Of a stretch of 64,000 nucleotides of DNA, positions 2,238 to 63,716 are shown piece by piece. Numbering within the stretch: the first letter of the stretch is position 1; each line of letters begins with the position of its first letter. Position numbers and translations under genes: made by a program. Under the pieces are notes generated by a model. That model was not told the origin of the DNA and made no database searches. It saw nothing but the letters and a program-made list of their open reading frames with translations. This DNA comes from Alphaproteobacteria bacterium (GTDB lineage Bacteria > Pseudomonadota > Alphaproteobacteria > RF32 > CAG-239): contig CAAGHP010000002.1 in the NCBI GenBank assembly GCA_900769705.1, positions 15,633-79,632 of the forward strand, written 5' to 3'.

Positions 2238-3289
2238 TGGCAGATGAGGTCAATATTTCTCCGCGCACTAACAGCTTTTTGCTGGGACAAACTAAAGCCG
2301 AAGAGCTTTTTTTGAAAGCTTGGAAAAATAATACTATGCACCATGCTTGGATTTTGAGCGGTCCGAAAGGTATCGGCAAAGCGACGCTGGCTTATCGTAT
2401 TGCCCGTTTTTTGCTATGGGCTGACGAAAGCAAAAAAGAGTCTTATAATTCATTAAATATTCCGGAGGATTCCGAAGTTTTTAAACAAACAGCTTCCGGT
2501 TCGCATCCGGATTTAATGGTTGTTGAACGCGATTATATTGAAACCGACCGCAAAAAAATTATTAAGGCTATTCAAAAAGGCGAAGCTCCTGATGAAGAAG
2601 AGCTGAGCGCTATGAAAAAGTCGGCTTTTATACGTGTGGATGACGTGCGCAAAGTCAATGAGTTTTTGGCTAAGACTTCATTTAATGATAATTGGCGGAT
2701 AGTGATTATAGACAGCGCCGATGAAATGAATAAAAACGCCGCAAACGCGCTGCTGAAGATTTTGGAAGAGCCTCCGGCACACACGGTTTTGCTGCTTATA
2801 AGCCACAATGCCGGAATGTTGCTACCGACAATCCGTTCGCGCTGCGCTAAATTACCGCTGCAGATGCTTGATTTTAATGAAACAGCTAGCCTGCTGCGTC
2901 GCTATCGTCCGCAACTTAAAGAAGCGATGATAAGCAAAGTGGCGGAAATGTGTTCGCAAAGTATTGGACAAGCTATTTTATATGCTGATTTGGATGCGGT
3001 CGGAATGTATGATAATCTGTGCAAGATTCTCTATCTTAAGCAAAAATTTGCGTTAAGAGATTTACTGGAGTTTTGTACGGAAGCTACCGCCGATGCCGAT
3101 AGTTTTGCTTTGCTGCAGGAGTTGATTTTGAAGTTTATCCGTGAAAATATGCTGCAATCTCAAGATGTTGAGGCTTTATATGCGTGCTGGGATGAAACAA
3201 ATCGTAAATTTGCCGATTGCCAAAACATAAATATGGATAAAAAACAGATGCTGATTAACTTAATAACTAAAATTTGCAAGGTTTTATAA
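2237..3289 (+). CDS. holB: DNA polymerase III delta-prime subunit
   Basis: Walker-A-like GPKGIGKATLA and sensor-2 TIRSRC box are present. Start overlaps the tmk stop (ATGA). Confidence 0.75.
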   Translation: MADEVNISPRTNSFLLGQTKAEELFLKAWKNNTMHHAWILSGPKGIGKATLAYRIARFLLWADESKKESYNSLNIPEDSEVFKQTASGSHPDLMVVERDYIETDRKKIIKAIQKGEAPDEEELSAMKKSAFIRVDDVRKVNEFLAKTSFNDNWRIVIIDSADEMNKNAANALLKILEEPPAHTVLLLISHNAGMLLPTIRSRCAKLPLQMLDFNETASLLRRYRPQLKEAMISKVAEMCSQSIGQAILYADLDAVGMYDNLCKILYLKQKFALRDLLEFCTEATADADSFALLQELILKFIRENMLQSQDVEALYACWDETNRKFADCQNINMDKKQMLINLITKICKVL

Positions 3290-4072
3290 ATGTTTACAGA
3301 CAGCCATTGTCATATTAACGCCGCCGATTTTGCACAGGACCGAGAAGAAACGGTGCAGCGGGCAAGAGATATACAGATTGATTATATTTTGGATGTGTGC
3401 GATGATATAGCCGATATGCCGCGTCTATTGGATTTTTGCAACAGTCACAGACATATTTATACCACTGCCGGAGTGCATCCGGAATTGGCTGACAAATATC
3501 CGGATTTTACGGCAGAGCAGATTTTAGAACAGGCAAAATCGCCGTATGTTGTCGGTATCGGCGAATGCGGGTTAGATTATTATTACAACGCCGATATCAA
3601 AGAACAGCAGCTAAAAGTTTTAGCAGCGCATATCAAAGCTGCACAGATAAGCGGATTGCCTTTGATTATCCATAATCGCGAGTCTGACGATGATATGATT
3701 GCCATGTTAGGCGAGGCTTATAAAAAGCAAAAATTCAAAGGGGAACTGCATTGTTTTTCGTCATCAAAAAAATTATTGGAATTTGCGCTTTCTATAGGGT
3801 TTTATATTTCAGCTTCCGGTATTATCACATTTAAAAATAGCGAAAATTTGCGGAATATGTTTAAAAGTGTGCCAAACGATCGGCTGCTGATAGAAACAGA
3901 TTCACCGTATTTGGCTCCGGTTCCGCACCGAGGACAGCGCAACGAGCCGGCTTTTGTGGTAAATACGGCAGAAGCATTGGCTAAACTGAAAAATATGGAG
4001 ATTACCGATTTGGCAGAATTAACAACCGGCAATTTTTTGAGATTGTTTGATAAGGTAAAAGCAGATGAGTAA
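3290..4072 (+). CDS. tatD: TatD-family metal-dependent hydrolase / DNase
   Basis: N-terminus is FTDSHCHIN. Other motifs are GVHPE, IGECGLDY and LIETDSPYL. Confidence 0.85.
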   Translation: MFTDSHCHINAADFAQDREETVQRARDIQIDYILDVCDDIADMPRLLDFCNSHRHIYTTAGVHPELADKYPDFTAEQILEQAKSPYVVGIGECGLDYYYNADIKEQQLKVLAAHIKAAQISGLPLIIHNRESDDDMIAMLGEAYKKQKFKGELHCFSSSKKLLEFALSIGFYISASGIITFKNSENLRNMFKSVPNDRLLIETDSPYLAPVPHRGQRNEPAFVVNTAEALAKLKNMEITDLAELTTGNFLRLFDKVKADE

Positions 4073-5761: not shown

Positions 5762-5799
5762 AAAATATCCCTTTGCCGTAAAAAGCAGGGGATATTTTT
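5762..5799 (+). terminator. rho-independent terminator of the rlpA..nrnA-like operon
   Basis: Perfect 10-11 bp stem AAAATATCCCC / GGGGATATTTT followed by TTTTAT. Confidence 0.7.
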
Positions 5800-5821
5800 A
5801 TATGTTCCTATATGTCTTTAC

Positions 5822-5850
5822 TTGACAAAAAAATGAAAAATAATATACTG
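5822..5850 (+). promoter_or_regulatory. sigma70 promoter, family copy A (TTGACA-17-TATACT, TGn extended -10)
   Basis: cTTGACAaaaaaatgaaaaataaTATACT. A near-identical promoter plus leader is found at 7169 and 9819. Confidence 0.6.
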
Positions 5851-5880
5851 AACTAAATTTTAATTATTAACTTATTTATT

Positions 5881-6615
5881 ATGATACATTTTACTAATAA
5901 ATCGTGTTTTTTAATTGGCAGAAACCGTAAAACACCGCAGCCTCTTTTAGTCGCATCCGATAAAGTCGGCTTTGGGCTGAAAGCGGAAGATGTTTTGGCA
6001 ATCGTAAGTTATAATCTTGTGTTTGCCCTAAACGCTCAAGCTGCGAATGAACTGAAAAAAATTGCCGATAAGTCGCTTTGCCTGTATGATTTGCCGGACT
6101 ATTGCTTTGAGGCAGATTTTGCAGCATGCGACAATGATTTTCGGCACAAAGCGGAGATGCTTTGTCAAAACGGCTGCAAAGTAGATGAAAAGCAGCTACA
6201 TCAGCCTGTGCTATGGTTTTTGGCAGAGCCGGTTTGGTTTTATAACCAAAATGAAAAGCCTAAGGACTATCTTCTGGCGGCGCTTATATATCTGAACCGC
6301 GACAGCTTTACACTCAAATATTCTATGAATTTTGATGAGGCACGCGTTCATGATATTATCGGCTTTGTGCTGGATGATTTTGTGTTTTCGCTGAATACGG
6401 CTGCCAACTGTATGCTTTTTGAGATGGTGCAGAATGAAAAATGCTTGTTCCGCGCTACAAAAGACGGAGAGTACGGCGTAGGGCGAAAAGTTACGCAAAC
6501 TCCGGAATTTTCTAAGCTTATCAATATCTTGCAAAATTATTGCGTGATAGACAACAGTGTATATCTGCCTTTTTTGAGGTGGAAAACCGATAATTCTGAA
6601 AAACTGATTTTTTAA
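5881..6615 (+). CDS. hypothetical protein, paralog family member A
   Basis: 244-aa ORF behind a strong promoter with no recognisable domain. Its N-terminal block LAIVSYNLVFALN aligns with LGIVCQGVIFALN of ORF 7240. Confidence 0.55.
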   Translation: MIHFTNKSCFLIGRNRKTPQPLLVASDKVGFGLKAEDVLAIVSYNLVFALNAQAANELKKIADKSLCLYDLPDYCFEADFAACDNDFRHKAEMLCQNGCKVDEKQLHQPVLWFLAEPVWFYNQNEKPKDYLLAALIYLNRDSFTLKYSMNFDEARVHDIIGFVLDDFVFSLNTAANCMLFEMVQNEKCLFRATKDGEYGVGRKVTQTPEFSKLINILQNYCVIDNSVYLPFLRWKTDNSEKLIF

Positions 6616-6626
6616 CTTAAATTATT

Positions 6627-7109
6627 ATGTTTATGGACAGCAAATTTAACATTAAAGTGGATGCTCCAAGCGAGTTGGCGTATATTACCGAGCTTGGACA
6701 TGTTCAGGTTCTGCCTGTGTTGGAAATAGCCAAGCGTGATAAACTTTGGGGAATTAAATGCGGCAATATTATCGTAGCGCTGAAAAATTCAAAGTTTAAC
6801 AACTGGATTCACGCCATGAAATCAGAGCGGGTTTTGTCGCCAAAATGGAAAATTTCTTTGCCGCTGGTGGATGATTTGTGCGATTGCTATGCAGCAAAAG
6901 ACAACTTCCGCAAGACTTTGGATTTTTTGCACGTTCACTCGGTTGATGCCGATGATTGGCTGGACGGCTGGTACTGGTCGGGCGAAGAAACCGGATTTGA
7001 TTCTGATACTATACATACTTTTGATATGAAAGACGGTATGTATTCTAAGCATGATCGCCGCGACAACAACGGTTTTGTGCGTTATGCTTTAGTGAGATTG
7101 CCAGAGTAA
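6627..7109 (+). CDS. hypothetical protein, co-transcribed with 5881
   Basis: 160-aa ORF 12 bp downstream of the previous gene. A terminator follows it. Confidence 0.5.
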   Translation: MFMDSKFNIKVDAPSELAYITELGHVQVLPVLEIAKRDKLWGIKCGNIIVALKNSKFNNWIHAMKSERVLSPKWKISLPLVDDLCDCYAAKDNFRKTLDFLHVHSVDADDWLDGWYWSGEETGFDSDTIHTFDMKDGMYSKHDRRDNNGFVRYALVRLPE

Positions 7110-7125
7110 TAGATTATAAAAAAAA

Positions 7126-7158
7126 CTGTAAAGTCATTAGTGATTTTACGGTTTTTTT
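7126..7158 (+). terminator. rho-independent terminator
   Basis: CTGTAAA..12 nt..TTTACGG stem (one G-U pair) followed by TTTTTTT. Confidence 0.55.
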
Positions 7159-7168
7159 GTTTATAGGC

Positions 7169-7197
7169 TTGACAAAAAAATAAAAATATGTATACTA
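7169..7197 (+). promoter_or_regulatory. sigma70 promoter, family copy B
   Basis: cTTGACAaaaaaataaaaatatgTATACT, nearly identical to copy A including the A-rich spacer. Confidence 0.6.
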
Positions 7198-7239
7198 AAA
7201 CTGTATTTTAATTATTTAACTTTTTAAATTTTTACTATT

Positions 7240-7581
7240 ATGTCTAATGGTTTTATTCAAACGCCATGCCCGCTGGTTTTTTATAACGGCCGAGAGGGCA
7301 AATTGGAACTTTCATCCAGAGTTGATACGGATAAGTGCCATTTAGTGTTGGGCATTGTTTGCCAAGGAGTTATTTTTGCATTAAATGATTTTAGCAAACG
7401 CTCCTTAATCGGTTTTCAATCTTCTGATTCTCATCTTGCAAAAATTCTGCCGAATGATAATCCGAAAGCAGTTGAAACCATGCACAATATTTTGCTGCAA
7501 AAAACCATAACTATGTTATCGTTTCATTGCAATGTTGATACTAATGTTGTTAAAAAACCTCTGTTATTATGGAAAGAGTAA
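7240..7581 (+). CDS. hypothetical protein, short paralog of 5881 N-terminal domain
   Basis: 113-aa ORF sharing the motif C.L...R....L.IV....VIFALN with the 5881 product. It has the same promoter and leader type. Confidence 0.5.
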   Translation: MSNGFIQTPCPLVFYNGREGKLELSSRVDTDKCHLVLGIVCQGVIFALNDFSKRSLIGFQSSDSHLAKILPNDNPKAVETMHNILLQKTITMLSFHCNVDTNVVKKPLLLWKE

Positions 7582-7586
7582 TAATG

Positions 7587-7630
7587 AAAATCCTCTTAAA
7601 AACTTATTGTTTTTGAGGGGATTTTTGTTT
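7587..7630 (+). terminator. rho-independent terminator
   Basis: AAAATCCTC...GAGGGGATTTT stem followed by a T-run. Confidence 0.5.
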
Positions 7631-7656
7631 ATAGTAACGGCATAAGGAGAAATTAA

Positions 7657-8868
7657 ATGCAGCTCAGCGCTAAATATCAGGCAGTTTTAGAAGTTATAGC
7701 CAAAGTTTTTCAAGATCAATATCCGGCCGACAATATTTTGAAGGAATATTTGCGGAATAGAAAGTATATCGGTTCTAAAGACCGCAAGTTTATTACCAAT
7801 ACGGTGTGGGATATCATTCGCCACCGTAGCCGGTTGGAATTTGACTGTGGCTGCTGCGAATCGCGGATGCTGCTGCTGACTTATCTTAAAGACGAAGATT
7901 TGGATATTGTAGCCGACGGTTCGGAATATGGCTTAAAACCGCTGACTAAAGAAGAAAAAGAAAAACTGGAGCATCTGAATGAAGATGTTTATCCTGAATA
8001 TATAGAAAAAGAATGTCCAAAATGGCTGTATGAAAAAATCAACAATCCGGCATTGGCCGAAAGTCTGAATACTACAGCTCCGGCTGATATCAGAGCTAAT
8101 TTTATCAGCCGCGAAGAAGCTAAAAACAAACTGCAGAAAGAGGGGTTGTTCTTTTCTCTTACTCCATATTCGCCGTATGGATTGCGCTCAGCCGAAAGAG
8201 TAAATTTGCAAAACTGCATAGCTTATCAAAACGGAGAAATAGAAGTGCAGGATGAGGCGTCGCAGCTTGGAGCTATTTTGTGTGATGTGCGCAATAATCA
8301 GAGGATTATAGACTATTGTTGCGGCGGAGGCGGCAAAAGTCTGCTGCTGGGAGCTATTTTGCATAACGACGGCTTGATTTATGCCCATGATAAAAACTTT
8401 AACCGTATGGATGGGTTAAAAACGCGGGCTGAGCGATTGGGAATTAAAAATATCAAAATTATCCAAGGGATAAATGCTGCCGATAAATTTGATCGTTTTA
8501 TTGTAGATGCTCCATGTTCCGGCAGCGGAACATGGAGGCGTTCGCCTGATGCTAAATACCGTCTTACGCCTAAGCAACTGAAAGCCATAGAACAAGCTCA
8601 GACCGAAATTTTAGATATTGCCGCCAAGCATGTGTCTGACAGCGGACGGATTATTTATATGACTTGTTCGGTTCTGCCTGAAGAAAATGAACAAAGGATA
8701 GAAGATTTTCTGCAAAAATATCCGGACTTTACGACTGTTAATATGAAAAATTTATGGGAAAGAAAATTGGAACAGCCATATCCTTTTACGGAAACGCGCT
8801 GGTTAAAGTGTTCACCTCTGTTGACCGGTACAGACGGATTTTTTGTCTGTGTACTGCAAAAGAAATAA
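7657..8868 (+). CDS. rsmB: 16S rRNA (cytosine-C5) methyltransferase, RsmB/Sun (NOL1/NOP2) family
   Basis: NusB-like N-terminus is present. SAM-binding site DYCCGGGGKS and catalytic IVDAPCSGSGTWRR are found. An RBS AAGGAG lies upstream. Confidence 0.75.
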   Translation: MQLSAKYQAVLEVIAKVFQDQYPADNILKEYLRNRKYIGSKDRKFITNTVWDIIRHRSRLEFDCGCCESRMLLLTYLKDEDLDIVADGSEYGLKPLTKEEKEKLEHLNEDVYPEYIEKECPKWLYEKINNPALAESLNTTAPADIRANFISREEAKNKLQKEGLFFSLTPYSPYGLRSAERVNLQNCIAYQNGEIEVQDEASQLGAILCDVRNNQRIIDYCCGGGGKSLLLGAILHNDGLIYAHDKNFNRMDGLKTRAERLGIKNIKIIQGINAADKFDRFIVDAPCSGSGTWRRSPDAKYRLTPKQLKAIEQAQTEILDIAAKHVSDSGRIIYMTCSVLPEENEQRIEDFLQKYPDFTTVNMKNLWERKLEQPYPFTETRWLKCSPLLTGTDGFFVCVLQKK

Positions 8869-9818: not shown

Positions 9819-9847
9819 TTGACAAAAATCACAAAAAATGTATATAT
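9819..9847 (+). promoter_or_regulatory. sigma70 promoter, family copy C
   Basis: cTTGACAaaaatcacaaaaaaTGtATATAT. The downstream leader shares the AAATTnnAATTATTAAC element with copies A and B. Confidence 0.55.
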
Positions 9848-9892
9848 TTCAGCTAAATTCAAATTATTAACAATTTAAATTATTTTGAGCGT

Positions 9893-10573
9893 ATGAATAT
9901 TTTAAAAAGACTGTACTTACAGTACACAGCATTGAAAGGCAATTTTACCTTAGGTACTTTAATCGGCTTGTGCGAGGTTTATGAATATGACCTTGATGAA
10001 AGCAAAAATTGGCAGGCCGAAGTTGCATGGAATATGAAGTGGAGCCAAAAGGACGGCATGACAACAAACCGCGAGCTGCGCCGCATTTTGAGCATTTTCT
10101 TTGTCAACCATACTTTTATGAGTGACAAAGCTTTTGAAAAGGTAATGGCTAATCGTAGACGAGTGCTGCCTTTGGTTATGGCTTGTTTGAAAAAACGTCA
10201 AAAGCCTTTGAATATGGTCGAAAGCACGGTTATAGCCAAACTTCCGCAAGAAAATTTTGAACTTCTGCCCCGACCTCTGCATCCGCGGATTGAAAAAGAG
10301 CTTTTGACTTCTGATGAGGTTCAGAAAGTTTTTTGGTACTGCAATCGGTTTGAACTTTCTACCGATTCTGAAATGAGCTTAGTACTGCTGGCTACCGGAA
10401 ACAGTTATGCCGCCACAACCAGCAAAAATATTGACTATAAAAAGCTGCTGCTTGAATATGTCAAAAACAATAAAGAAGCATTTAACAATGATTATTCTTT
10501 TGATTTGCTGTGTAAACAGGACGGATTAAACGAGATCAAAGAGATTGTTTTAAGCCGCCGTGCTGATGTATAG
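9893..10573 (+). CDS. hypothetical protein
   Basis: 226-aa ORF bracketed by its own promoter and terminator. No domain recognised. Confidence 0.5.
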   Translation: MNILKRLYLQYTALKGNFTLGTLIGLCEVYEYDLDESKNWQAEVAWNMKWSQKDGMTTNRELRRILSIFFVNHTFMSDKAFEKVMANRRRVLPLVMACLKKRQKPLNMVESTVIAKLPQENFELLPRPLHPRIEKELLTSDEVQKVFWYCNRFELSTDSEMSLVLLATGNSYAATTSKNIDYKKLLLEYVKNNKEAFNNDYSFDLLCKQDGLNEIKEIVLSRRADV

Positions 10574-10613: not shown

Positions 10614-10642
10614 TTGACAAATTAAAGCACTTTGTCTATATT
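10614..10642 (+). promoter_or_regulatory. sigma70 promoter (TTGACA-17-TATATT)
   Basis: Exact consensus -35 with a 17-bp spacer, placed right after the terminator. Confidence 0.6.
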
Positions 10643-10681
10643 TTCTGACATATTTCATATTATTATCTAAAGTGTATTTTT

Positions 10682-11776
10682 ATGGGAAAGTTTAATTATT
10701 TCAAAATGCTGTCAAAGGCCTGCACCAGCAGATTGACTGATTTGGAAGTAGATGAGTTATGCCAGCAATATTGCCGCAACGAGGCAAATTGGGCGGGCAA
10801 TTTACTTTCGTTCCAGTTATCAAAAATACCGGATATTCAAGTTGCCGGCTACTTAAAAGTTTATGGTAAGAAACTGTGGCTGCTTTATTTCAAAATTATC
10901 GGCGCCAAACCATACGGCACGGAAGTGCAAAAGCTGCTGATTTACGGTATGCCGTATGATATTTTTACGCTACTGCCGCACAATTTGAGCATTGACGGAG
11001 AATTGTTACTGATAGAAATGCAAAAAATAAACGAGTCGCCTGACGACAGCTTTATTTTAGCAAAACTGGAATGGTATTTGCAGCATTATGCTTTGTCGTT
11101 TGAGGCTTTACTGAAGCTGATTGATCAGTCCGAAAAGCTCCAAGCGGCAAATAAATCTCAGAATTTTGCTGTGCTGCAGCCTTTGTGTTTTGCTGTGCAG
11201 AAATTTGCGGAAAGCTCTAAGCCCAATGCTTTGTCAAGCGTGGAAACACAGCTCAGAATTTTGAATTTAGCCGATGACGGACAGTTGATAAAAAGTCTTT
11301 TGCATTTCTTTGATATGAGGAATATTCCAAATGAAAAGGTTGTGCAAAAGCTGATTGAAATCGGTAATATCGATTATCTGAAAGAGCTTCTTTCACACAG
11401 CTGCGTTCACGAACAAAAAGAAAAAGTCTACCATGCTTTTCCGCAGCTTAAAACTGAATTGTTGCTTTCCGAAATCGGAGCGGCGGCTTGTCAGCTTAAT
11501 CGGAGCGAGGCTCTCTATGCCAAGCATCATGACTATGCTAAGTTGGTGCAGGGCTATTGTTCGGGATTTCCGATGTGCTTTCTCAGTGAATCAGGCAAAG
11601 TTATGCCGATGCTGCTGATTTGCAAGGGCCTGTATATCAGCGCCGGCACCAAGGAAGGGCGTTGCCGCTGGATAGAAAAGGCAATTGAATATTGCCGCTT
11701 CTATAAGAACATTACAGAACTTCAACAGGTTATTCCTTTGCTGAAACAGGCTTTGGCTGAAGAAAAAGCTTTATGA
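10682..11776 (+). CDS. hypothetical protein
   Basis: 364-aa ORF with its own promoter and terminator. No domain recognised. Confidence 0.5.
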   Translation: MGKFNYFKMLSKACTSRLTDLEVDELCQQYCRNEANWAGNLLSFQLSKIPDIQVAGYLKVYGKKLWLLYFKIIGAKPYGTEVQKLLIYGMPYDIFTLLPHNLSIDGELLLIEMQKINESPDDSFILAKLEWYLQHYALSFEALLKLIDQSEKLQAANKSQNFAVLQPLCFAVQKFAESSKPNALSSVETQLRILNLADDGQLIKSLLHFFDMRNIPNEKVVQKLIEIGNIDYLKELLSHSCVHEQKEKVYHAFPQLKTELLLSEIGAAACQLNRSEALYAKHHDYAKLVQGYCSGFPMCFLSESGKVMPMLLICKGLYISAGTKEGRCRWIEKAIEYCRFYKNITELQQVIPLLKQALAEEKAL

Positions 11777-19808: not shown

Positions 19809-20969
19809 TTGATTTTAGGGAGTTTAGATATTATGAACAGATATTTGTTATTGACCTGCGCTATGTTATTGGCAATTCCGGCGTATGCCTCTACCGATAA
19901 GCTGATAGAAAATGTTAAAAACAAAAACCTGAAAGCAGTTGAAGCTTTGTTGAACAGCGGCGAAGATGTCAACGGTACCAATGCTCAGGGAAATACGGCT
20001 TTGCACTATGCAGTGGCAACTAACAACGCCGATATGGTAAAGCTACTGTTACAACACAATGCGGATATGAATGCGCAAAATACAAAAGGCTGGTCGCCGC
20101 TTTCGATTGCTGAAAAGAAAAATGTGGGCAATATCTATGATATTTTAGAAGCAAAACAAGCTAAAAATAAAGCTGAAGTTAAGGCGGCAGAGGAAAAAGC
20201 AGCTAAAGAAAAAGCTGATGCAGAAGCAAAAGCTAAAGCCGCGGCAGAACAGGCAACCCGCAAAAAAGCTGAAGCAGAAGCAAAAATGGCAGCAGAAAAA
20301 GAGGCTTTGCGCGCAAAAGAAGAAGCAGTCAGATTAGAGGCGGAAAAACAAGCTGCAGCTTTAAAAGAACAAGCAAAAAAAGCTGCGGCCGAGGCAGTTG
20401 CAAAAGCCGAACAGAAAAAAGCTGAGCTGGCAGCTAAACAAGCTGAAACAGAAGCAGCTGCTAAAGAAAAGGCACTAAAATTACAAAAAGCTCAAGCTAG
20501 CGCCGCAGCAGCTAAACAATTGACAGAACCAAAAGCCGAAGTTAAGAAAAATGTCGTAAAACCGGCTGTAAATACTATTATTCCACTGCAGAAAAATACA
20601 AATAAAAACAAAATGAAAAATAAAGATGTTAAACTAAAAAATAAAAAAATTAAGCAGGCTTTCAAAGCTTCGCCGTTATCGGCAAAAATAAGTCAAGGCG
20701 ATGAAGAAGTTGTTTATTGCCTGCAATATTTAGGTTTACAGGGCGAGCAAAAAAATATGACAGTGGCTGCAGGTTATTATGCCGTGGAAACAGGTGTCAG
20801 CAAAGCTCGTCATGATGTGGCTGCGGCCGAAGCTCAAAAGTATTATGAAAACGCTTCGGAAGCCGATATAAAGGCGAGGGCAGATTTGTGCGGAAAATAT
20901 ATTACGCCGAAACAAGCTGCTAAACAAAATCAAATTATCCGTAATTTGAATAAAGCTATCGGGTTCTAA
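19809..20969 (+). CDS. secreted ankyrin-repeat protein with long Ala/Lys/Glu-rich low-complexity region
   Basis: Signal peptide MNRYLLLTCAMLLAIPAYA is present. Two ANK repeats are found (GNTALHYAV..NADMVKLLLQHNADMN). About 130 aa of KAEAEAKAKAAAE-type repeats follow. Confidence 0.75.
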   Translation: MILGSLDIMNRYLLLTCAMLLAIPAYASTDKLIENVKNKNLKAVEALLNSGEDVNGTNAQGNTALHYAVATNNADMVKLLLQHNADMNAQNTKGWSPLSIAEKKNVGNIYDILEAKQAKNKAEVKAAEEKAAKEKADAEAKAKAAAEQATRKKAEAEAKMAAEKEALRAKEEAVRLEAEKQAAALKEQAKKAAAEAVAKAEQKKAELAAKQAETEAAAKEKALKLQKAQASAAAAKQLTEPKAEVKKNVVKPAVNTIIPLQKNTNKNKMKNKDVKLKNKKIKQAFKASPLSAKISQGDEEVVYCLQYLGLQGEQKNMTVAAGYYAVETGVSKARHDVAAAEAQKYYENASEADIKARADLCGKYITPKQAAKQNQIIRNLNKAIGF

Positions 20970-54448: not shown

Positions 54449-54820
54449 TTATTCATCTGTTTCATCCAACTTGCATTCTTTTTCAGGCTCAGTAATAGCC
54501 ATAAACCAGTCAATGACTTTTTTATCGGTTTTGGCTGCAATAATACCGTTAAACACAGCTGCAACAAAGAATGTAGCAATTCCGGCAACCAGCGGCAATA
54601 TCAGGGACAAAGCCAAGAATACTGCGCATTTTCTGCGGTTGGTCTGAAAATAGCTGGCAGAAACGACGGCTAAACCAACAGAGATAAGGCTGAAGATAAG
54701 ATATTCTATGCCAAAGCCTGAATCCATGTTAATCACAACGCCGTTAGTTTTTGCGCCAACCAACATAATTGCCAAAAAAGCGACAACAAGAACAATAACA
54801 CTGTTACGAGTCTTCTTCAT
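54449..54820 (-). CDS. small integral membrane protein (3-4 TM)
   Basis: 123-aa hydrophobic ORF with a terminator immediately downstream. Confidence 0.45.
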   Translation of the reverse strand: MKKTRNSVIVLVVAFLAIMLVGAKTNGVVINMDSGFGIEYLIFSLISVGLAVVSASYFQTNRRKCAVFLALSLILPLVAGIATFFVAAVFNGIIAAKTDKKVIDWFMAITEPEKECKLDETDE

Positions 54821-60861: not shown

Positions 60862-61047
60862 TCATTTGTCTTTATTAAACATAATCACATTAAGACAAAT
60901 CCACATAAGAACAGCCAAAAACATAACGACTGTTTTCAACATATTGCGCAGCATCTCATCAGGCTGAACAGTTTCTATATAAAACACCAACAACGCAATA
61001 AGCAGCATCAGCGCAATAGCAAGCACCGATAATTTCTTTTTAGTCAT
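60862..61047 (-). CDS. small hydrophobic protein, 61 aa, 2 TM (array gene 1)
   Basis: MTKKKLSVLAIALMLLIALLVFY... lies 9 bp downstream of array gene 2. Confidence 0.5.
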   Translation of the reverse strand: MTKKKLSVLAIALMLLIALLVFYIETVQPDEMLRNMLKTVVMFLAVLMWICLNVIMFNKDK

Positions 61048-61056
61048 AAGCCAATC

Positions 61057-61482
61057 TTAAAATTTATTAAACAACAATAAAGAAACATACAAACGGCTAA
61101 AATAATTGCCAATATTGTCAAAAATCTGCCCCCAGTCAACTAATAAAGCAAAACCGACAGCAAAAGCCAACACCAAAGCAATAGTAAAAATTACCGAACG
61201 CAATTTGACAGCTAGTTTATTATACTCTTGATACTCGAACAAAGCCAAATTGCCGTAATTACTATATTCTTCAGCTTTTTTCAGCTTTTCTTTTTTAAAC
61301 ATTTTCAAACTTGGCAACAAGTCAAAGAGCCAAGAAAACAGCAAACGGCTTATTGTGACAAAAACAATAAGGCCAACCAGTGGCAATGTTTCCTCAACTG
61401 TTGTTACAAACGGCGCCAGAGCTATCAGTACAATCAAGATAATTGTGAGGCTCCACTTCAAATAATAACCATTCATACGCAT
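61057..61482 (-). CDS. small membrane protein, 141 aa (array gene 2), paralog of 62253..62729
   Basis: TM helices at both ends. C-terminal LLVDWGQIFDNIGNYF aligns with WKVDWLPIFHNVKEWL of the 158-aa protein. Confidence 0.55.
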   Translation of the reverse strand: MRMNGYYLKWSLTIILIVLIALAPFVTTVEETLPLVGLIVFVTISRLLFSWLFDLLPSLKMFKKEKLKKAEEYSNYGNLALFEYQEYNKLAVKLRSVIFTIALVLAFAVGFALLVDWGQIFDNIGNYFSRLYVSLLLFNKF

Positions 61483-61519
61483 AAAAATTTAATGAAACAT
61501 AAATATAAAATTTGCTGTT

Positions 61520-61547
61520 ATGTTAGCATTCATTAGATTTTTGTCAA
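61520..61547 (-). promoter_or_regulatory. sigma70-like promoter (TTGACA-16-TAACAT) with conserved AT-rich leader
   Basis: Leader ...caaattttatatttatgtttcattaaatttttatgcgtATG is near-identical to the leader at 61814-61841. Confidence 0.5.
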
Positions 61548-61565
61548 GATTTAAATAATAAAAAA

Positions 61566-61598
61566 CACAGTCTTCTCAATGAAGACCGTGTTTTTTTT
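61566..61598. terminator. bidirectional terminator
   Basis: CACAGTCTTC tcaat GAAGACCGTG followed by T8. Confidence 0.7.
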
Positions 61599-61635
61599 GG
61601 GAAATAACAGATTAAAAAATCAGATAATTAGAATT

Positions 61636-61770
61636 TCAGCTAAAGAGCGAACACACCCAAGCAGAAAAATTTCTAATGTTTTCAATCCAATTAACCATCA
61701 AAGCCAAAATGAACACCACTATACCGCAAAATAAAATGGTGACTAACCATCTAAAATAATAGTTATACAT
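61636..61770 (-). CDS. small hydrophobic peptide, 44 aa, 1 TM (array gene 3; below the ORF-track cutoff)
   Basis: MYNYYFRWLVTILFCGIVVFILALMVNWIENIRNFSAWVCSLFS. It has its own promoter and terminator. Confidence 0.45.
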   Translation of the reverse strand: MYNYYFRWLVTILFCGIVVFILALMVNWIENIRNFSAWVCSLFS

Positions 61771-61813
61771 ATTACAAAAAAATTTAAAATATATAAAAAT
61801 AAAATTTGTAATT

Positions 61814-61841
61814 ATGTTACCATGTCTCAGTTTTTTGTCAA
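61814..61841 (-). promoter_or_regulatory. sigma70-like promoter (TTGACA-16-TAACAT), duplicate of the 61520 promoter
   Basis: ttgacaaaaaactgagacatggtaacataattacaaattttatttttat... versus ttgacaaaaatctaatgaatgctaacataacagcaaattttatatttat... Confidence 0.5.
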
Positions 61842-61855
61842 GTTTTAAAATAAAA

Positions 61856-61892
61856 AAGACTGTAAAATTCTTGCGAAAATCACAGTCTGATT
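61856..61892 (-). terminator. terminator of array gene 4
   Basis: GACTGT ...18 nt... ACAGTC followed, on the minus strand, by TTTTTT. Confidence 0.5.
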
Positions 61893-61897
61893 TTTCA

Positions 61898-62179
61898 TTA
61901 ACGGAACATCATTAACAGTATATCATTTTGGACTGAATTTTTTAAGGCTCCGGTTTTTGCCAATTTTCTGCCGATATGAATATCATAGACGCACAACAGA
62001 CAGAAAATACAAAACAAAGCCCCCGCACCCGCAATAACGCTATGAAAAACTATACCAATCAAAGCAAATGCTGCACAAAAAACAATCAATACACTGAAAA
62101 CAATCTTCTCACTAATTAAACTCATCTTCATAAAAATTTTAAAAACACAAATATATTTTATCAATTTTATATATAGCAT
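61898..62179 (-). CDS. small membrane protein, 93 aa (array gene 4) with glycine-zipper-like helix
   Basis: ...FHSVIAGAGALFCIFCLLCV... Confidence 0.5.
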   Translation of the reverse strand: MLYIKLIKYICVFKIFMKMSLISEKIVFSVLIVFCAAFALIGIVFHSVIAGAGALFCIFCLLCVYDIHIGRKLAKTGALKNSVQNDILLMMFR

Positions 62180-62198
62180 ATTTATGTTTTTCCGTCAA
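62170..62198 (-). promoter_or_regulatory. sigma70 promoter (TTGACG-17-TATATA)
   Basis: Minus strand reads ttgacggaaaaacataaatatgctatatata. Confidence 0.55.
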
Positions 62199-62205
62199 TA
62201 CAGTT

Positions 62206-62240
62206 CTATAAAAAATTGCAGAAGTTTTAGCAACCTCTGC
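62206..62240 (-). terminator. terminator of array gene 5
   Basis: GCAGA ...13 nt... TCTGC followed by a T-run. Confidence 0.5.
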
Positions 62241-62252
62241 AGTTTTTTTAAC

Positions 62253-62729
62253 CTAGCTGATAATTCCGCTAAAGATAGAGCCTATGGTTTGCAGCCATTC
62301 TTTTACATTATGAAAAATCGGCAACCAGTCAACTTTCCACCCCAGCAAACCTACGGGCAGAAAACAGATACAAAACTTAACCGCATCCAGCTTGATTTTT
62401 CTGAACTTAATCCTAAATTCGGCATCTTTTTCTTTTTCAAATTTTTCCTTAGCCTCGCCCCATTTCTTTTCTGCTTGCGCACAGGCTTCATCAATATCTT
62501 TGCCAAACTGTTTATGGTCGGCCAGAAAAACCAAAAAGCAATGAACAGACGCCAAGCTTAAAACAAGCATAATAAACAGAGCCAAGCTCGAAGTTTTATC
62601 GGACAGAGACAAAGAAAAAATAAACATACTGCCCAAAAATATTGTGATAACAATCATTGTCACAAATTCGGTTACAGAGATTTTTTTCTCATGTTTAGCG
62701 ATAAAATCAAAATAAAAATTCATAAGCAA
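62253..62729 (-). CDS. small membrane protein, 158 aa (array gene 5), paralog of 61057..61482
   Basis: N- and C-terminal TM helices flank a charged KEKFEKEKDAEF middle. It shares the VDW..IF.N motif with array gene 2. Confidence 0.55.
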   Translation of the reverse strand: MLMNFYFDFIAKHEKKISVTEFVTMIVITIFLGSMFIFSLSLSDKTSSLALFIMLVLSLASVHCFLVFLADHKQFGKDIDEACAQAEKKWGEAKEKFEKEKDAEFRIKFRKIKLDAVKFCICFLPVGLLGWKVDWLPIFHNVKEWLQTIGSIFSGIIS

Positions 62730-62811
62730 AAATAATTTAAATGAAACATAAAAATAAAATATTGCCTAAAGTTTATGACTTTTTATACTTTTGTCAATAT
62801 CAAAATAAAAA

Positions 62812-62848
62812 AGTCCGTAAAATCCTTATGAATTCTACGGTCCTCTTT
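62812..62848 (-). terminator. terminator of array gene 6
   Basis: GACCGTA ... TACGGAC hairpin followed by T6 on the minus strand. Confidence 0.45.
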
Positions 62849-62856
62849 AATTATTC

Positions 62857-63072
62857 TCAATCATTCCGAGGCAGAATGTCAAACAAATCTACCAATAGAC
62901 GGGCGGCCCAAAGTAAACAAGCTCCGGCAAAAATACCGACAGCACCGGCAACAATAGCACCTAAACAAAATACGGTGCTCGAAACTAAAATCAAAACAAT
63001 TCCGGCAATTACAGCTAAATAAGTTATTACAACTGCAAAATTGTGGAAATAAAGCATAAGCATTTTACGCAT
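62857..63072 (-). CDS. small hydrophobic protein, 71 aa (array gene 6) with GxxxG glycine zipper
   Basis: ...LGAIVAGAVGIFAGACLLWAARLL... Confidence 0.5.
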   Translation of the reverse strand: MRKMLMLYFHNFAVVITYLAVIAGIVLILVSSTVFCLGAIVAGAVGIFAGACLLWAARLLVDLFDILPRND

Positions 63073-63166
63073 AAAAAGAAAGATTTAAAAATTAAACATA
63101 CTAATAAAAAAACTATTCTAATAAAAACACGATTCAATATTTTTGTCAATATCACAAAACAAAAAA

Positions 63167-63200
63167 ACTGCAGAAGTTGTTACTCTTCCACAGTTTTATT
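63167..63200 (-). terminator. terminator of array gene 7
   Basis: CTGCAGAAG ... CTTCCACAG imperfect hairpin followed by a T-run. Confidence 0.4.
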
Positions 63201-63206
63201 AAGCAC

Positions 63207-63383
63207 TTATTTTGCATTTTCCGAATTACAGATAAATACAAAAGCAAACAAAGTCATATAAAACACAAACATAATCGCTGGCGGATATGCTTCCATCTCC
63301 ATAACATCAAGACAAGAGAAACATACGATAATTCCCAGCATAATCACAGCCATACAGCCACAAACAATGCCCAACATTTTCAT
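63207..63383 (-). CDS. small hydrophobic peptide, 58 aa (array gene 7; below cutoff)
   Basis: MKMLGIVCGCMAVIMLGIIVCFSCLDVMEMEAYPPAIMFVFYMTLFAFVFICNSENAK. Its ATG overlaps the stop of a 30-codon upstream ORF (ATGA). Confidence 0.4.
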   Translation of the reverse strand: MKMLGIVCGCMAVIMLGIIVCFSCLDVMEMEAYPPAIMFVFYMTLFAFVFICNSENAK

Positions 63384-63472
63384 AGTTTTTTGTTAATTTT
63401 CCACAAACAAACCATGACAAACACTAAACACATAACTTCAAAAATTTCGATTACTAAATTTGCTACAGCCAT
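63380..63472 (-). CDS. tiny hydrophobic ORF, 30 aa, translationally coupled to array gene 7
   Basis: MAVANLVIEIFEVMCLVFVMVCLWKINKKL. Its stop overlaps the next start. Confidence 0.3.
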   Translation of the reverse strand: MAVANLVIEIFEVMCLVFVMVCLWKINKKL

Positions 63473-63533
63473 AACAAAATATTTTAAATTAAACTTAATT
63501 ATAAAAATTTCATCGCGCCACGCTGTTTATGTT

Positions 63534-63635
63534 TTACTTATCGCCATGTTTGTCAATATAACCCATAAAAATTCCGGCCATACCTAAAACACACAAGATT
63601 AGTAAAAACGCGGCAATCATTATAAAATTTTCCAT
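63534..63635 (-). CDS. tiny hydrophobic ORF, 33 aa (array gene 8)
   Basis: MENFIMIAAFLLILCVLGMAGIFMGYIDKHGDK. A TTGACA lies about 65 bp upstream with a conserved ttttatttttatgtg leader. Confidence 0.3.
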   Translation of the reverse strand: MENFIMIAAFLLILCVLGMAGIFMGYIDKHGDK

Positions 63636-63716
63636 ATGTTAATAATTTTAGTTACACATAAAAATAAACTTATATGTTTGTCTTATCTTATTTTCTTGTT
63701 TTTGTCAATAATTTTT

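Follow-up and report, generated by a model that had tools for sequence, protein, structure and literature searches.

The region analyzed here encodes a lineage-restricted multigene family (ORF1, ORF2, and ORF3) built on a new alpha/beta domain of about 110 aa. The host clade consists of uncultured gut Alphaproteobacteria; the contig and its relatives are MAGs recovered from the gut metagenomes of humans and pigs, and the stretch studied (the window) is 64 kb long. The family shares with unrelated orphan genes a short box at the predicted transcript start. The best explanation, which we put at somewhat less than an even chance, is a lineage-specific, co-controlled orphan gene set, in which a trans factor would recognize the sequence of the box and govern the genes jointly. 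The features of the window on which the analysis rests are as follows.

5768..5800, + strand: intrinsic terminator of the upstream DHH/DHHA1 gene, a stem-loop followed by a T-run, at the 5' edge of the cassette
5822..5849, + strand: predicted promoter P1 (TTGACA, 16 nt, TATACT), 11/12 of the sigma-70 consensus
5857..5871, + strand: box 1, an exact ATTTTAATTATTAAC, 7 nt past the -10, with the leader extending to 5880
5881..6615, + strand: ORF1, 244 aa, two domain copies in tandem (~residues 1-122 and 123-244)
6627..7109, + strand: ORF2, 160 aa, aligned with the domain profile by hhalign (65%, E 6e-5)
7119..7158, + strand: intrinsic terminator after ORF2 (A-tract, 14-bp stem, T-tract; -19 kcal/mol)
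7169..7196, + strand: predicted promoter P2 (TTGACA, 16 nt, TATACT), 11/12 of the consensus, a duplicate of P1
7205..7220, + strand: box 2, ATTTTAATTATTTAAC, with one inserted T, 8 nt past the -10, with the leader extending to 7239
7240..7581, + strand: ORF3, 113 aa, one domain copy, aligned by hhalign with the C-terminal domain of ORF1
7583..7628, + strand: intrinsic terminator between the family and rsmB (-23 kcal/mol)
9819..9848, + strand: predicted promoter P3 (TTGACA, 18 nt, TATATT), 11/12 of the consensus
9857..9871, + strand: box 3, ATTCAAATTATTAAC, 2 mismatches
9893..10573, + strand: o9893, 226 aa, an orphan, soluble, belonging to a second family of paralogs
10614..10642, + strand: predicted promoter P4 (TTGACA, 17 nt, TATATT), 11/12 of the consensus
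10652..10667, + strand: box 4, ATTTCATATTATTATC, a degenerate copy
10682..11776, + strand: o10682, 364 aa, distantly paralogous to o9893 across the first ~150 residues

A Lineage-Restricted Family on a New Alpha/Beta Domain

Within the family, the best homology pairs ORF3 with the C-terminal half of ORF1 (BLASTP E 5e-6; hhalign 96%, E 3e-9). A third copy of the domain, in the N-terminal half of ORF1, is weaker (E 2-3e-4), and 23 domain sequences align collinearly. An earlier interpretation of this DNA (the sequence-only reading) had described open reading frames at 5881-6615 and 7240-7581 whose products have a block in common; both frames are present, and the block is real (LAIVSYNLVFALN in ORF1, LGIVCQGVIFALN in ORF3). 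ORF2 (6627-7109), which that reading did not include, probably contains one domain copy (~residues 11-110) followed by a C-terminal extension, to judge from the profile alignment, an assignment weaker than those of ORF1 and ORF3. The extension is conserved (GWYWSGE...GFVRYAL); a DUF1566 or lectin-like fold for this C-terminus (WYWSGE...VRYAL) was considered, found no profile support, and was dropped. The junction between ORF1 and ORF2 is 11 nt long and lacks a Shine-Dalgarno (SD) sequence (TTAACTTAAATTATT-ATG), and the two genes are predicted to be co-transcribed. The ORF1-3 proteins are soluble; neither a Sec-type signal nor a membrane segment was found in them.

An AlphaFold model of the ORF3 domain, built on the 23-sequence domain alignment, is mixed alpha/beta (pLDDT 92.5, pTM 0.86); a model of full-length ORF1 with six orthologs was unusable (pLDDT 35). 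A Foldseek search of the pLDDT 92.5 model, as the sequence-only reading had proposed, yielded no match in the PDB or BFVD (best E 0.6-0.7, TM <= 0.27); the modeled fold, though confidently predicted, appears to have no counterpart among PDB or viral structures. Neither Pfam, PHROG, PADLOC, nor NCBIfam has a family for ORF1-3 at E <= 0.1, and a PDB profile search returned nothing at E <= 10, in agreement with the earlier statement that no recognizable domain is present. Pfam was likewise blank when ORF2-like proteins and other products of box genes were searched at E <= 1. Homologs are extremely sparse: 8 matches were found among 1.84 billion representative proteins, word-index searches gave 5, 3, and 13 clusters, and the family occurs in 4 of 185,579 species genomes. 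Searches by tblastn found nothing in phages (ORF2 query) or plasmids (ORF1 query).

Two further genes, o9893 and o10682, form a second orphan family (hhalign 83%, E 9e-6), and no recognizable domain was found in either. In the sole comparison made with ORF1-3 (BLASTP, E <= 1), o9893, the product of the third unit, showed no relationship. The earlier description of a paralogous family in tandem arrangement is borne out.

Wherever flanking sequence could be read, the family sits immediately upstream of rsmB; this holds for the window and for related loci L002-L005, L011, L015-L018, and L019-L022. Its neighbors are DHH, dCMP deaminase, rsmB, lpxA, and ProRS genes; the deaminase is an ordinary CMP/dCMP enzyme of 155 aa. 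In none of the five genomic contexts does the family adjoin a gene for a toxin or recombinase or one from a mobile element, and the GC and GC3 of the family resemble those of the host. The rsmB site is fixed and vertically inherited rather than mobile. Copy number varies from 1 to 6 genes per species. Orthologs of ORF2 occur in L002-L004 and L015, and L003 and L004 each contain four ORF3 paralogs in tandem, so the comparison with related genomes suggested by the sequence-only reading finds the family both present and expanded. At the level of sequence, these loci show gain and loss of copies by tandem duplication at a fixed chromosomal site. Values of dN/dS are 0.18-0.31 for the family (ORF1, 0.18-0.28; ORF2, 0.18-0.19) versus 0.01-0.04 for RsmB and LpxA; the family is under purifying selection, yet evolves ~5-10 times faster than the neighboring genes.

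Promoter Cassettes and the Box

P1-P4 have the appearance of near-consensus sigma-70 (housekeeping) promoters. TTGACA hexamers begin exactly at 5822, 7169, and 9819, where the sequence-only reading had placed three units; the fourth promoter-box site, at 10614, is an addition to it. The -35 and -10 of P1 are kept across two clades whose ORF1 proteins are 50% identical. Global alignments of the 5822, 7169, and 9819 upstream regions score 32, 26, and 22, against 11.7 +/- 4.0 (maximum 26) for composition-matched shuffles, and these regions are mutually closer than they are to the other TTGACA promoters of the window. The earlier claim of a near-identical promoter and leader applies to 5822 and 7169, which are clear duplicates, but not to 9819, which shares only the -35, the -10, and the box. 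Cassette terminators fold at -15 to -33 kcal/mol, and the hairpin of 7583-7628 also precedes rsmB in L003 and L005. Judged by these signals, each unit is a self-contained cassette of promoter, leader, gene(s), and intrinsic terminator. Phage morons are also autonomous promoter-gene-terminator units inserted between other genes, and the present units resemble them in combining a strong promoter of their own with an intrinsic terminator alongside, amid unrelated housekeeping genes. Unlike morons, the units have no prophage context, phage, viral, and plasmid collections are blank, and the site is conserved and inherited vertically.

The -35 and -10 elements are generic; TTGACA and TAnnnT also precede dinB (11866), pheA (14802), and small membrane-protein genes. 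The specific element is the box, a 15-mer (ATTTTAATTATTAAC) that precedes four units in the window (5822, 7169, 9819, and 10614). The composite of TTGACA, N15-18, TAnnnT, N6-20, and ATTATT(T)AA occurs four times in the window, versus a mean of 0.115 (maximum 2) in block shuffles, and on the + strand of the window ATTTTAATTATTAAC with <=2 mismatches is found only at 5857, 7205, and 9857. The box follows the -10 by 7-10 nt, a position where the transcript is expected to begin (+1 being predicted solely from the -10); 8-24 nt separate it from the ATG. The literal leader 11-mer of the sequence-only reading, AATTATTWAAC, was rejected; it is not enriched (10 sites versus 12.9 expected), and the box was redefined for this reason. 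With <=1 mismatch, CTTGACAAAAA is weakly enriched (9 sites versus 4.6 expected); it also precedes unrelated small membrane-protein genes.

The ORF1 5' UTR is nearly invariant in seven orthologous loci, although the encoded proteins share only 50% identity and the flanking DNA cannot be aligned. At L019, a locus found through protein homology alone, the box is perfect in 3/3 units, and it is perfect before the L019 orthologs of o9893 and o10682 and the L035 ortholog of o10682. An exact composite scan of metagenome contigs located the box upstream of homologs of ORF1, o9893, and o10682, and upstream of a 422-aa o10682 paralog; in related contigs it also precedes two further orphan families (176-aa and ~295-aa). 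Part of this metagenome set was picked through an exact-box search, so that it shows breadth rather than frequency. The box is carried by at least four unrelated orphan families, the ORF1-3 family among them; a scan of viral contigs for the composite promoter plus box found none.

An inverted repeat (TTAAT-T-ATTAA, predicted +3 to +13) is present in the consensus of the box, its left arm variable (TCAAAT, TCTGAT, and TCATAT) and its right arm nearly fixed. With this unequal conservation the box seems a poor fit to a classical dimeric operator; a Fur-, Zur-, or CodY-like operator, considered for the AT-rich inverted repeat, was set aside on the same ground and is kept only as a lead. Some family members have a degenerate or absent box (L003 ORF3a, L015 P0049, and box 4). 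Promoterless internal cistrons retain box-like 3' halves (TTTTATTAAC before L003 ORF3d and TTAACTTAAATTATT before ORF2), which points to a role at the level of RNA rather than DNA.

SD-Less Leaders and the Possible Action of the Box

The leaders of the box genes are ~25-45 nt long, ~90% A+U, unstructured, and without an SD sequence. Duplexes with the anti-SD have energies of +1.9 (ORF1), +0.6 (ORF2), +1.7 (ORF3), -1.5 (o9893), and -0.4 kcal/mol (o10682), versus -9.3 for RsmB, -8.7 for the DHH gene, and -5 to -9 kcal/mol for most core genes. The leaders fold at -3 to -7 kcal/mol, with z between -0.8 and +1.3 relative to shuffles (0.14 for the ORF1 leader), and Rfam gave no match to them at E <= 1 or at the gathering score; the window contains no rRNA. 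Other SD-less genes occur in the window: orphan genes at 61-64 kb have a different leader (ATTTTATTTTTATGT...), and hyp123 (54449-54820, - strand) has an upstream region with no box.

The 3' end of the box and the bases that follow it read UUAACUU(A/U)(U/A) in several leaders, a match at 7-9 of 9 positions to UUAACUUUA, which forms the core of epsilon. The T7 gene 10 epsilon enhancer (UUAACUUUAA) is an AU-rich 5' UTR element containing UUAACUU that raises ribosome loading (PMC9590205). Enhancers of the epsilon type are defined by UUAACUUUA and its complementarity to helix 17 of the 16S rRNA. The box leaders resemble epsilon in being AU-rich, in carrying UUAACUU, and in their flexible distance upstream of the start codon, and the extent of their match to UUAACUUUA depends on the gene. 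They differ from it in that epsilon works with a strong SD, which the box genes do not have, and in that the conserved part of the box reaches further 5' (AUUUUAAUUAU).

In the explanation we favor, a sequence-specific trans factor would recognize the box and control the box genes together as one set. The spacing of the box, fixed relative to the -10 and variable relative to the ATG, suggests a role in transcription initiation, in which the box may act as an operator over the start site or as an initial-transcribed element. The better-conserved 3' half of the box (AUUAUUAAC(U)) and the AU-rich, unstructured leader would probably stand in for the SD in ribosome loading. It is possible, though doubtful, that the box serves this gut lineage as an address label for an expression system of its own, whose factor (a protein, an sRNA, or some feature of the ribosome) would turn on the whole class of SD-less, fast-evolving orphans or translate them selectively.

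Two other accounts of the box itself have to be weighed against joint control by a trans factor. The box may work on RNA only, as an SD-replacing translation enhancer acting via S1 or rRNA pairing without coordinated regulation, unrelated genes sharing it since each needs one ribosome-loading signal. All box genes lack an SD and the neighboring core genes carry one, the leaders are unstructured and rich in AU, promoterless internal cistrons retain TTATTAAC or TTAAC motifs, the leaders approach the core of epsilon, and the right half of the box is the better conserved. We nevertheless consider an RNA-only role somewhat unlikely; AU-rich enhancers of the S1 type do not depend on an exact 15-mer, the spacing is held to the -10 and not to the start codon, and the SD-less orphans at 61-64 kb use another leader. 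It is highly improbable that the likeness among the units is generic, a chance resemblance of strong sigma-70 promoters and AT-rich leaders set in intergenic DNA that is itself AT-rich. The same hexamers at dinB, pheA, and the small membrane-protein genes are in keeping with a chance likeness, as are the weak enrichment of CTTGACAAAAA and the lack of enrichment of AATTATTWAAC, but the composite exceeds its expectation, the box (<=2 mismatches) is restricted to these units, it is kept between clades with diverged proteins and unalignable flanks, and it recurs before the same orphan families in other species. The sequence-only reading had itself named a generic promoter likeness as evidence that would count against it; the shared cis element proves specific.

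Possible Roles of the Proteins

The proteins most likely belong to a niche- or conflict-related accessory genome, a placement that draws purely on their evolutionary behavior. Within conflict systems, the Bacteroidales acquired interbacterial defence clusters are tandem arrays of orphan immunity genes, and the present family resembles them in its small cytoplasmic tandem paralogs, variable copy number, rapid divergence, and gut habitat. It differs from them in having no adjacent toxin or recombinase and no sequence or structure match to immunity families. In the PmrA and CpxR sites of Legionella and Coxiella Icm/Dot effectors and the VjbR box of Brucella, promoter-proximal elements define effector regulons. 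As in those regulons, unrelated, lineage-specific genes without domains are tied together by a short AT-rich cis element at a fixed promoter position, and such an element can serve to list the genes of the set. The box, unlike those sites, is found past the -10, where +1 is predicted, and not upstream, and the host is an uncultured gut alphaproteobacterium, not known as intracellular.

An orphan immunity, antitoxin-like, or anti-phage array, in which cytoplasmic binders would neutralize toxins or phage proteins and duplicate in an arms race, accords with small (~110 aa), soluble, mixed alpha/beta proteins, with tandem diverged paralogs whose number differs among species, with a dN/dS above that of the neighbors, and with the scarcity of homologs. 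Such an array is unlikely; a toxin, recombinase, or mobile element is adjacent in 0/5 genomic contexts, no PADLOC defence model, Pfam immunity family, or solved immunity structure was matched, phage and plasmid collections are without matches, and the site is fixed and vertically inherited rather than mobile. The sequence-only reading had seen instead the effector pattern of intracellular bacteria. On such a view ORF1-3, and perhaps all box genes, would encode effectors that a host-associated or intracellular bacterium translocates, and a secretion system would come under the same regulation. The families are indeed lineage-specific, fast-evolving, paralogous, and without known domain, one cis element is common to unrelated orphan genes, the lineage-specific expansion fits (though it is not specific to effectors), the gut source is host-associated, and another part of the window codes for an ankyrin-repeat protein. 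We found no positive evidence for translocation, and consider it quite unlikely: the proteins have no signal peptide and no eukaryote-like domain (Pfam), and a secretion-system gene is absent from the 64-kb window, the 87-kb scaffold, and the short related loci examined. The ankyrin-repeat gene (19833-20969), which had been offered as supporting context, has a normal SD and no box, and the window contains ordinary cell-envelope and housekeeping genes, not those of an obviously reduced intracellular genome. A literature search on the lifestyle of RF32 gut Alphaproteobacteria found nothing usable. The family being real, expanded in relatives, and equipped with a specific cis element, the findings that the sequence-only reading had listed as contrary to it did not materialize; taken together, the data neither support the effector idea nor exclude it.

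Hardly any work exists on the uncultured Alphaproteobacteria of the gut, and the majority of genes specific to these lineages escape annotation. A short exact tag that links several orphan families permits sequence-based grouping of such genes and the prediction of co-expression, which is testable in gut metatranscriptomes. The domain family is a structural target, with a confidently predicted fold that has no match in the PDB or the viral structure set, and the SD-less box genes, in a genome that otherwise uses SD sequences, raise the question of alternative ribosome recruitment in Alphaproteobacteria. If the proteins are exported, the box would be an effector-finding motif, as the PmrA site is for Legionella; if the box is indeed an address label, it could be used to list the full host- or competitor-interaction repertoire of the lineage straight from metagenomes.

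Promoters, leaders and the shared box

The window derives from an 87-kb scaffold of a human gut metagenome (BRIT16-1_SAMN02334113) and has a G+C content of 40%; the NCBI protein cluster to which its LpxA belongs is labelled 'Pseudomonadota bacterium'. The features considered here are as follows.

5822, 7169 and 9819: TTGACA promoters P1, P2 and P3
5881-6615: ORF1, 244 aa
6627-7109: ORF2, 160 aa, beginning 11 nt past ORF1
7240-7581: ORF3, 113 aa
9893-10573: o9893
10614: fourth promoter
10682-11776: o10682
19833-20969 (+): ankyrin-repeat protein, 378 aa, flanked by aspS and ugd

ORF1, ORF3 and the three TTGACA hexamers lie exactly where the sequence-only reading had placed them, and each promoter matches the sigma-70 consensus at 11 of 12 positions. 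Together with sites at 10614 and 11866, these are the best promoter-like sites of the region. A strong intrinsic terminator ends each unit; with its own promoter and leader as well, each is an autonomous cassette. The claim of a shared promoter and leader held in part: P1 and P2 are plainly duplicates, whereas P3 has in common with them only the hexamers and the leader motif (pairwise alignment scores of the three upstream regions 32, 26 and 22; composition-matched shuffles 11.7 +/- 4.0, maximum 26). The hexamers are generic, since TTGACA-N16-18-TAnnnT also heads dinB, pheA and, at 61-64 kb, several consecutive genes for small membrane proteins; even the A-tract following the -35 is generic.

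Judged from sequence, the specific element of these units is a 15-nt box, ATTTTAATTATTAAC. With up to two mismatches allowed, its plus-strand matches in the window are at 5857, 7205 and 9857 only. The window contains four promoter-plus-box composites (0.115 expected), the fourth of which, at 10614, heads o10682. The box starts 7-10 nt past the -10, at the predicted transcription start, with a variable 8 to 24 nt between it and the ATG.

Most core genes of the window carry a GGAG-type Shine-Dalgarno (SD) sequence, with anti-SD duplex energies of -9.3 (RsmB), -8.7 (DHH) and -5.6 kcal/mol (LpxA). It is absent from ORF1 (+1.9), ORF2 (+0.6), ORF3 (+1.7), o9893 (-1.5) and o10682 (-0.4 kcal/mol), for which the 25 nt upstream are 80-96% A+T. 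The leaders fold no more strongly than shuffles and match no Rfam family. Promoterless internal cistrons retain box-like 3' halves, for example ahead of ORF2 (TTAACTTAAATTATT-ATG) and of ORF3d, an ORF3 paralog in the related locus L003 (TTTTATTAACTTTAATTTTT). The 3' end of the box and the bases following it read UUAACUU(A/U)(U/A), which may offer a lead in its resemblance to the epsilon enhancer of T7 gene 10, UUAACUUUAA (PMC9590205).

Other SD-less leaders were observed in the window. An orphan of 123 aa at 54449-54820 (-) has an AT-rich leader with TTTAAC, and neither box nor TTGACA promoter. At 60862-63660 (-) lie at least six small orphan genes in a row, encoding predicted membrane proteins of 58-158 aa, each with its own (A/C)TTGACAAAA promoter, intrinsic terminator and SD-less leader. 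This second leader type, ATTTTAT(T/A)TTTATGT...TTAAAT, starts 8-9 nt past the -10; ATTTTA opens both leader classes. In one ORF1 ortholog (L030), a TAA-to-CAA change in the leader opens in-frame read-through from an upstream ATG inside the promoter, and the 267-aa ORF1 recorded in the database (P0001) is for this reason a gene-calling artefact.

Conservation of the box in related loci

The seven ORF1 loci compared, all orthologous, form two clades, between which the proteins are about 50% identical and the upstream genes differ. Alignment across both clades is limited to the -35 and -10 elements, the box and the remaining 5' UTR, and the 5' UTR is almost invariant across the seven. A further locus, L019, was located via a database protein (P0043) and not via the box; a perfect box heads each of its three transcription units, those of the o9893 homolog, the o10682 homolog and an ORF3-like gene.

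Scanning metagenome contigs for exact matches to the composite gave 19 loci. In gut-type contigs (37-45% GC) the box heads homologs of ORF1, o9893 and o10682, a 422-aa o10682 paralog, and orphan families of 176 aa and 294-296 aa; no Pfam domain was found in the proteins behind it. The extra loci are flanked by genes that look like housekeeping genes (judged by eye from ORF translations). Matches in contigs of different composition look like chance, and viral contigs gave none. The box sits at the predicted transcript start, is common to unrelated orphan genes and is kept across species.

A lineage-confined domain family

ORF3 aligns with the C-terminal half of ORF1 (BLASTP E 5e-6; hhalign 96%, E 3e-9). 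Both also align with the N-terminal half of ORF1, less strongly (E 2-3e-4) but collinearly and with the same motifs, and ORF2 matches the domain profile over residues 11-110 (65%, E 6e-5) and has a conserved C-terminal extension of 50 aa. The motifs are, in order, I-x-x-P-C-x-L...N, hLGhxxxGhhFALN and L..yCxVD.....PhLxW. As the sequence-only reading had held, there is no recognisable domain: Pfam, PHROGs, PADLOC, NCBIfam and PDB sequences gave no match, nor did phage and plasmid DNA. Sequence searches gave only 5, 3 and 13 clusters, and 1.84 billion representatives, searched exhaustively with a profile, yielded 8 proteins. The feature is assigned to no known family; the domain family is new, confined to one lineage, and duplicates in tandem. 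A 113-aa protein from a Logan assembly (P0044) fuses in frame the beginning of the N-terminal domain of ORF1 and the end of the C-terminal domain; either recombination between the two internal repeats produced a natural deletion, or the fusion is an artefact of assembly.

AlphaFold gave a pLDDT of 35 for full-length ORF1; for ORF3, modelled from a 23-sequence domain alignment, it gave a confident model (pLDDT 92.5, pTM 0.86), in which two beta-hairpins and three main helices are completed by a closing strand. Foldseek found nothing similar to this model in PDB (best E 0.73, TM <= 0.19) or BFVD (best E 0.6), and the predicted fold is possibly new compared with these databases. The proteins have no membrane segment or signal-like N-terminus.

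Relatives of ORF1 occur in four species genomes, all gut MAGs, and further relatives in assemblies from human and pig gut. The genes around the family are ordinary (SHMT, MscL, SLT, PBP5, Tmk, HolB, TatD, an MBL-fold hydrolase, a DHH/DHHA1 protein, RsmB, LpxA, DinB, PheA, AspS, GatCAB, GyrA, DnaG and ThrS). In all contexts with flanking sequence the family lies immediately upstream of rsmB with a terminator between, whose hairpin is identical in the window, L003 and L005; gene content varies.

Family genes upstream of rsmB, by locus
Window, L002: ORF1-ORF2-ORF3
L003, L004: ORF1-ORF2 and four tandem ORF3 paralogs
L005, L011: ORF1 alone
L015-L017: ORF2-like and ORF3-like gene
L019-L022: one ORF3-like gene

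The distant paralogs o9893 and o10682 (hhalign 83%, E 9e-6) are located downstream of lpxA both in the window and in L002, whereas in L019 (5600-7487) their position is upstream of the ORF3-like gene; the two orphan families therefore remain associated in the rsmB-lpxA neighbourhood. ORF1-3, o9893 and o10682 are real genes, with dN/dS of 0.18-0.31 (ORF1-3) and 0.12-0.15 (o9893 and o10682), against 0.01-0.04 for RsmB and LpxA, and their GC and GC3 match the host's.

Between the window (5881-7581) and L002 (6001-7702), dS is 0.11-0.22 for ORF1-3, 3-6 times below the adjacent rsmB (0.67), and 0.40 for o9893 and o10682; the low values may reflect recent recombinational exchange of the cassette. 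L005 has a distant ORF2 relative at 2722-3336 (25% identity, tblastn E 7e-8), between mutL and ldh, so ORF2-like proteins are not restricted to the rsmB site. In L019, the stretch that separates the o10682 homolog from the ORF3-like gene (7490-7890) is translated as 'FSIIVPVYNVQRFLPLCIKSLTNQSYDNFEIICINDGSTDNSKELLEQYAKA'; broken by frameshifts, it looks like a glycosyltransferase gene remnant and hints at site rearrangement.

Possible roles of the box and its genes

The sequence-only observation was confirmed and extended, and its interpretation is supported in part. The genes had been proposed as secreted effectors. The features behind that proposal (orphan status, paralogy, shared regulation and a host-associated source) are real, but none is effector-specific. 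No secretion system was found in the window or the related loci examined, and no eukaryote-like domain or signal in the proteins. The ankyrin-repeat gene, suggested as a companion, lies outside the box set, with a normal GGAG Shine-Dalgarno and no box. An effector function is a minority possibility, as is an immunity or defence array formed by the ORF1-3 type family, which matches the evolutionary pattern equally well but comes with no toxin, mobile context or family match.

The box genes would act most like a small accessory-gene regulon defined by its promoter-proximal box. A sequence-specific factor may read the box and make the genes one co-controlled set, and the constant distance from box to -10 points to a role in transcription initiation. 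Because its halves are unequally conserved and it is partly retained at internal cistrons, the box may additionally or alternatively act at the RNA level, in ribosome loading that does not depend on an SD. The proteins evolve fast and their copy number changes, which suggests that their role is related to the niche or to conflict.
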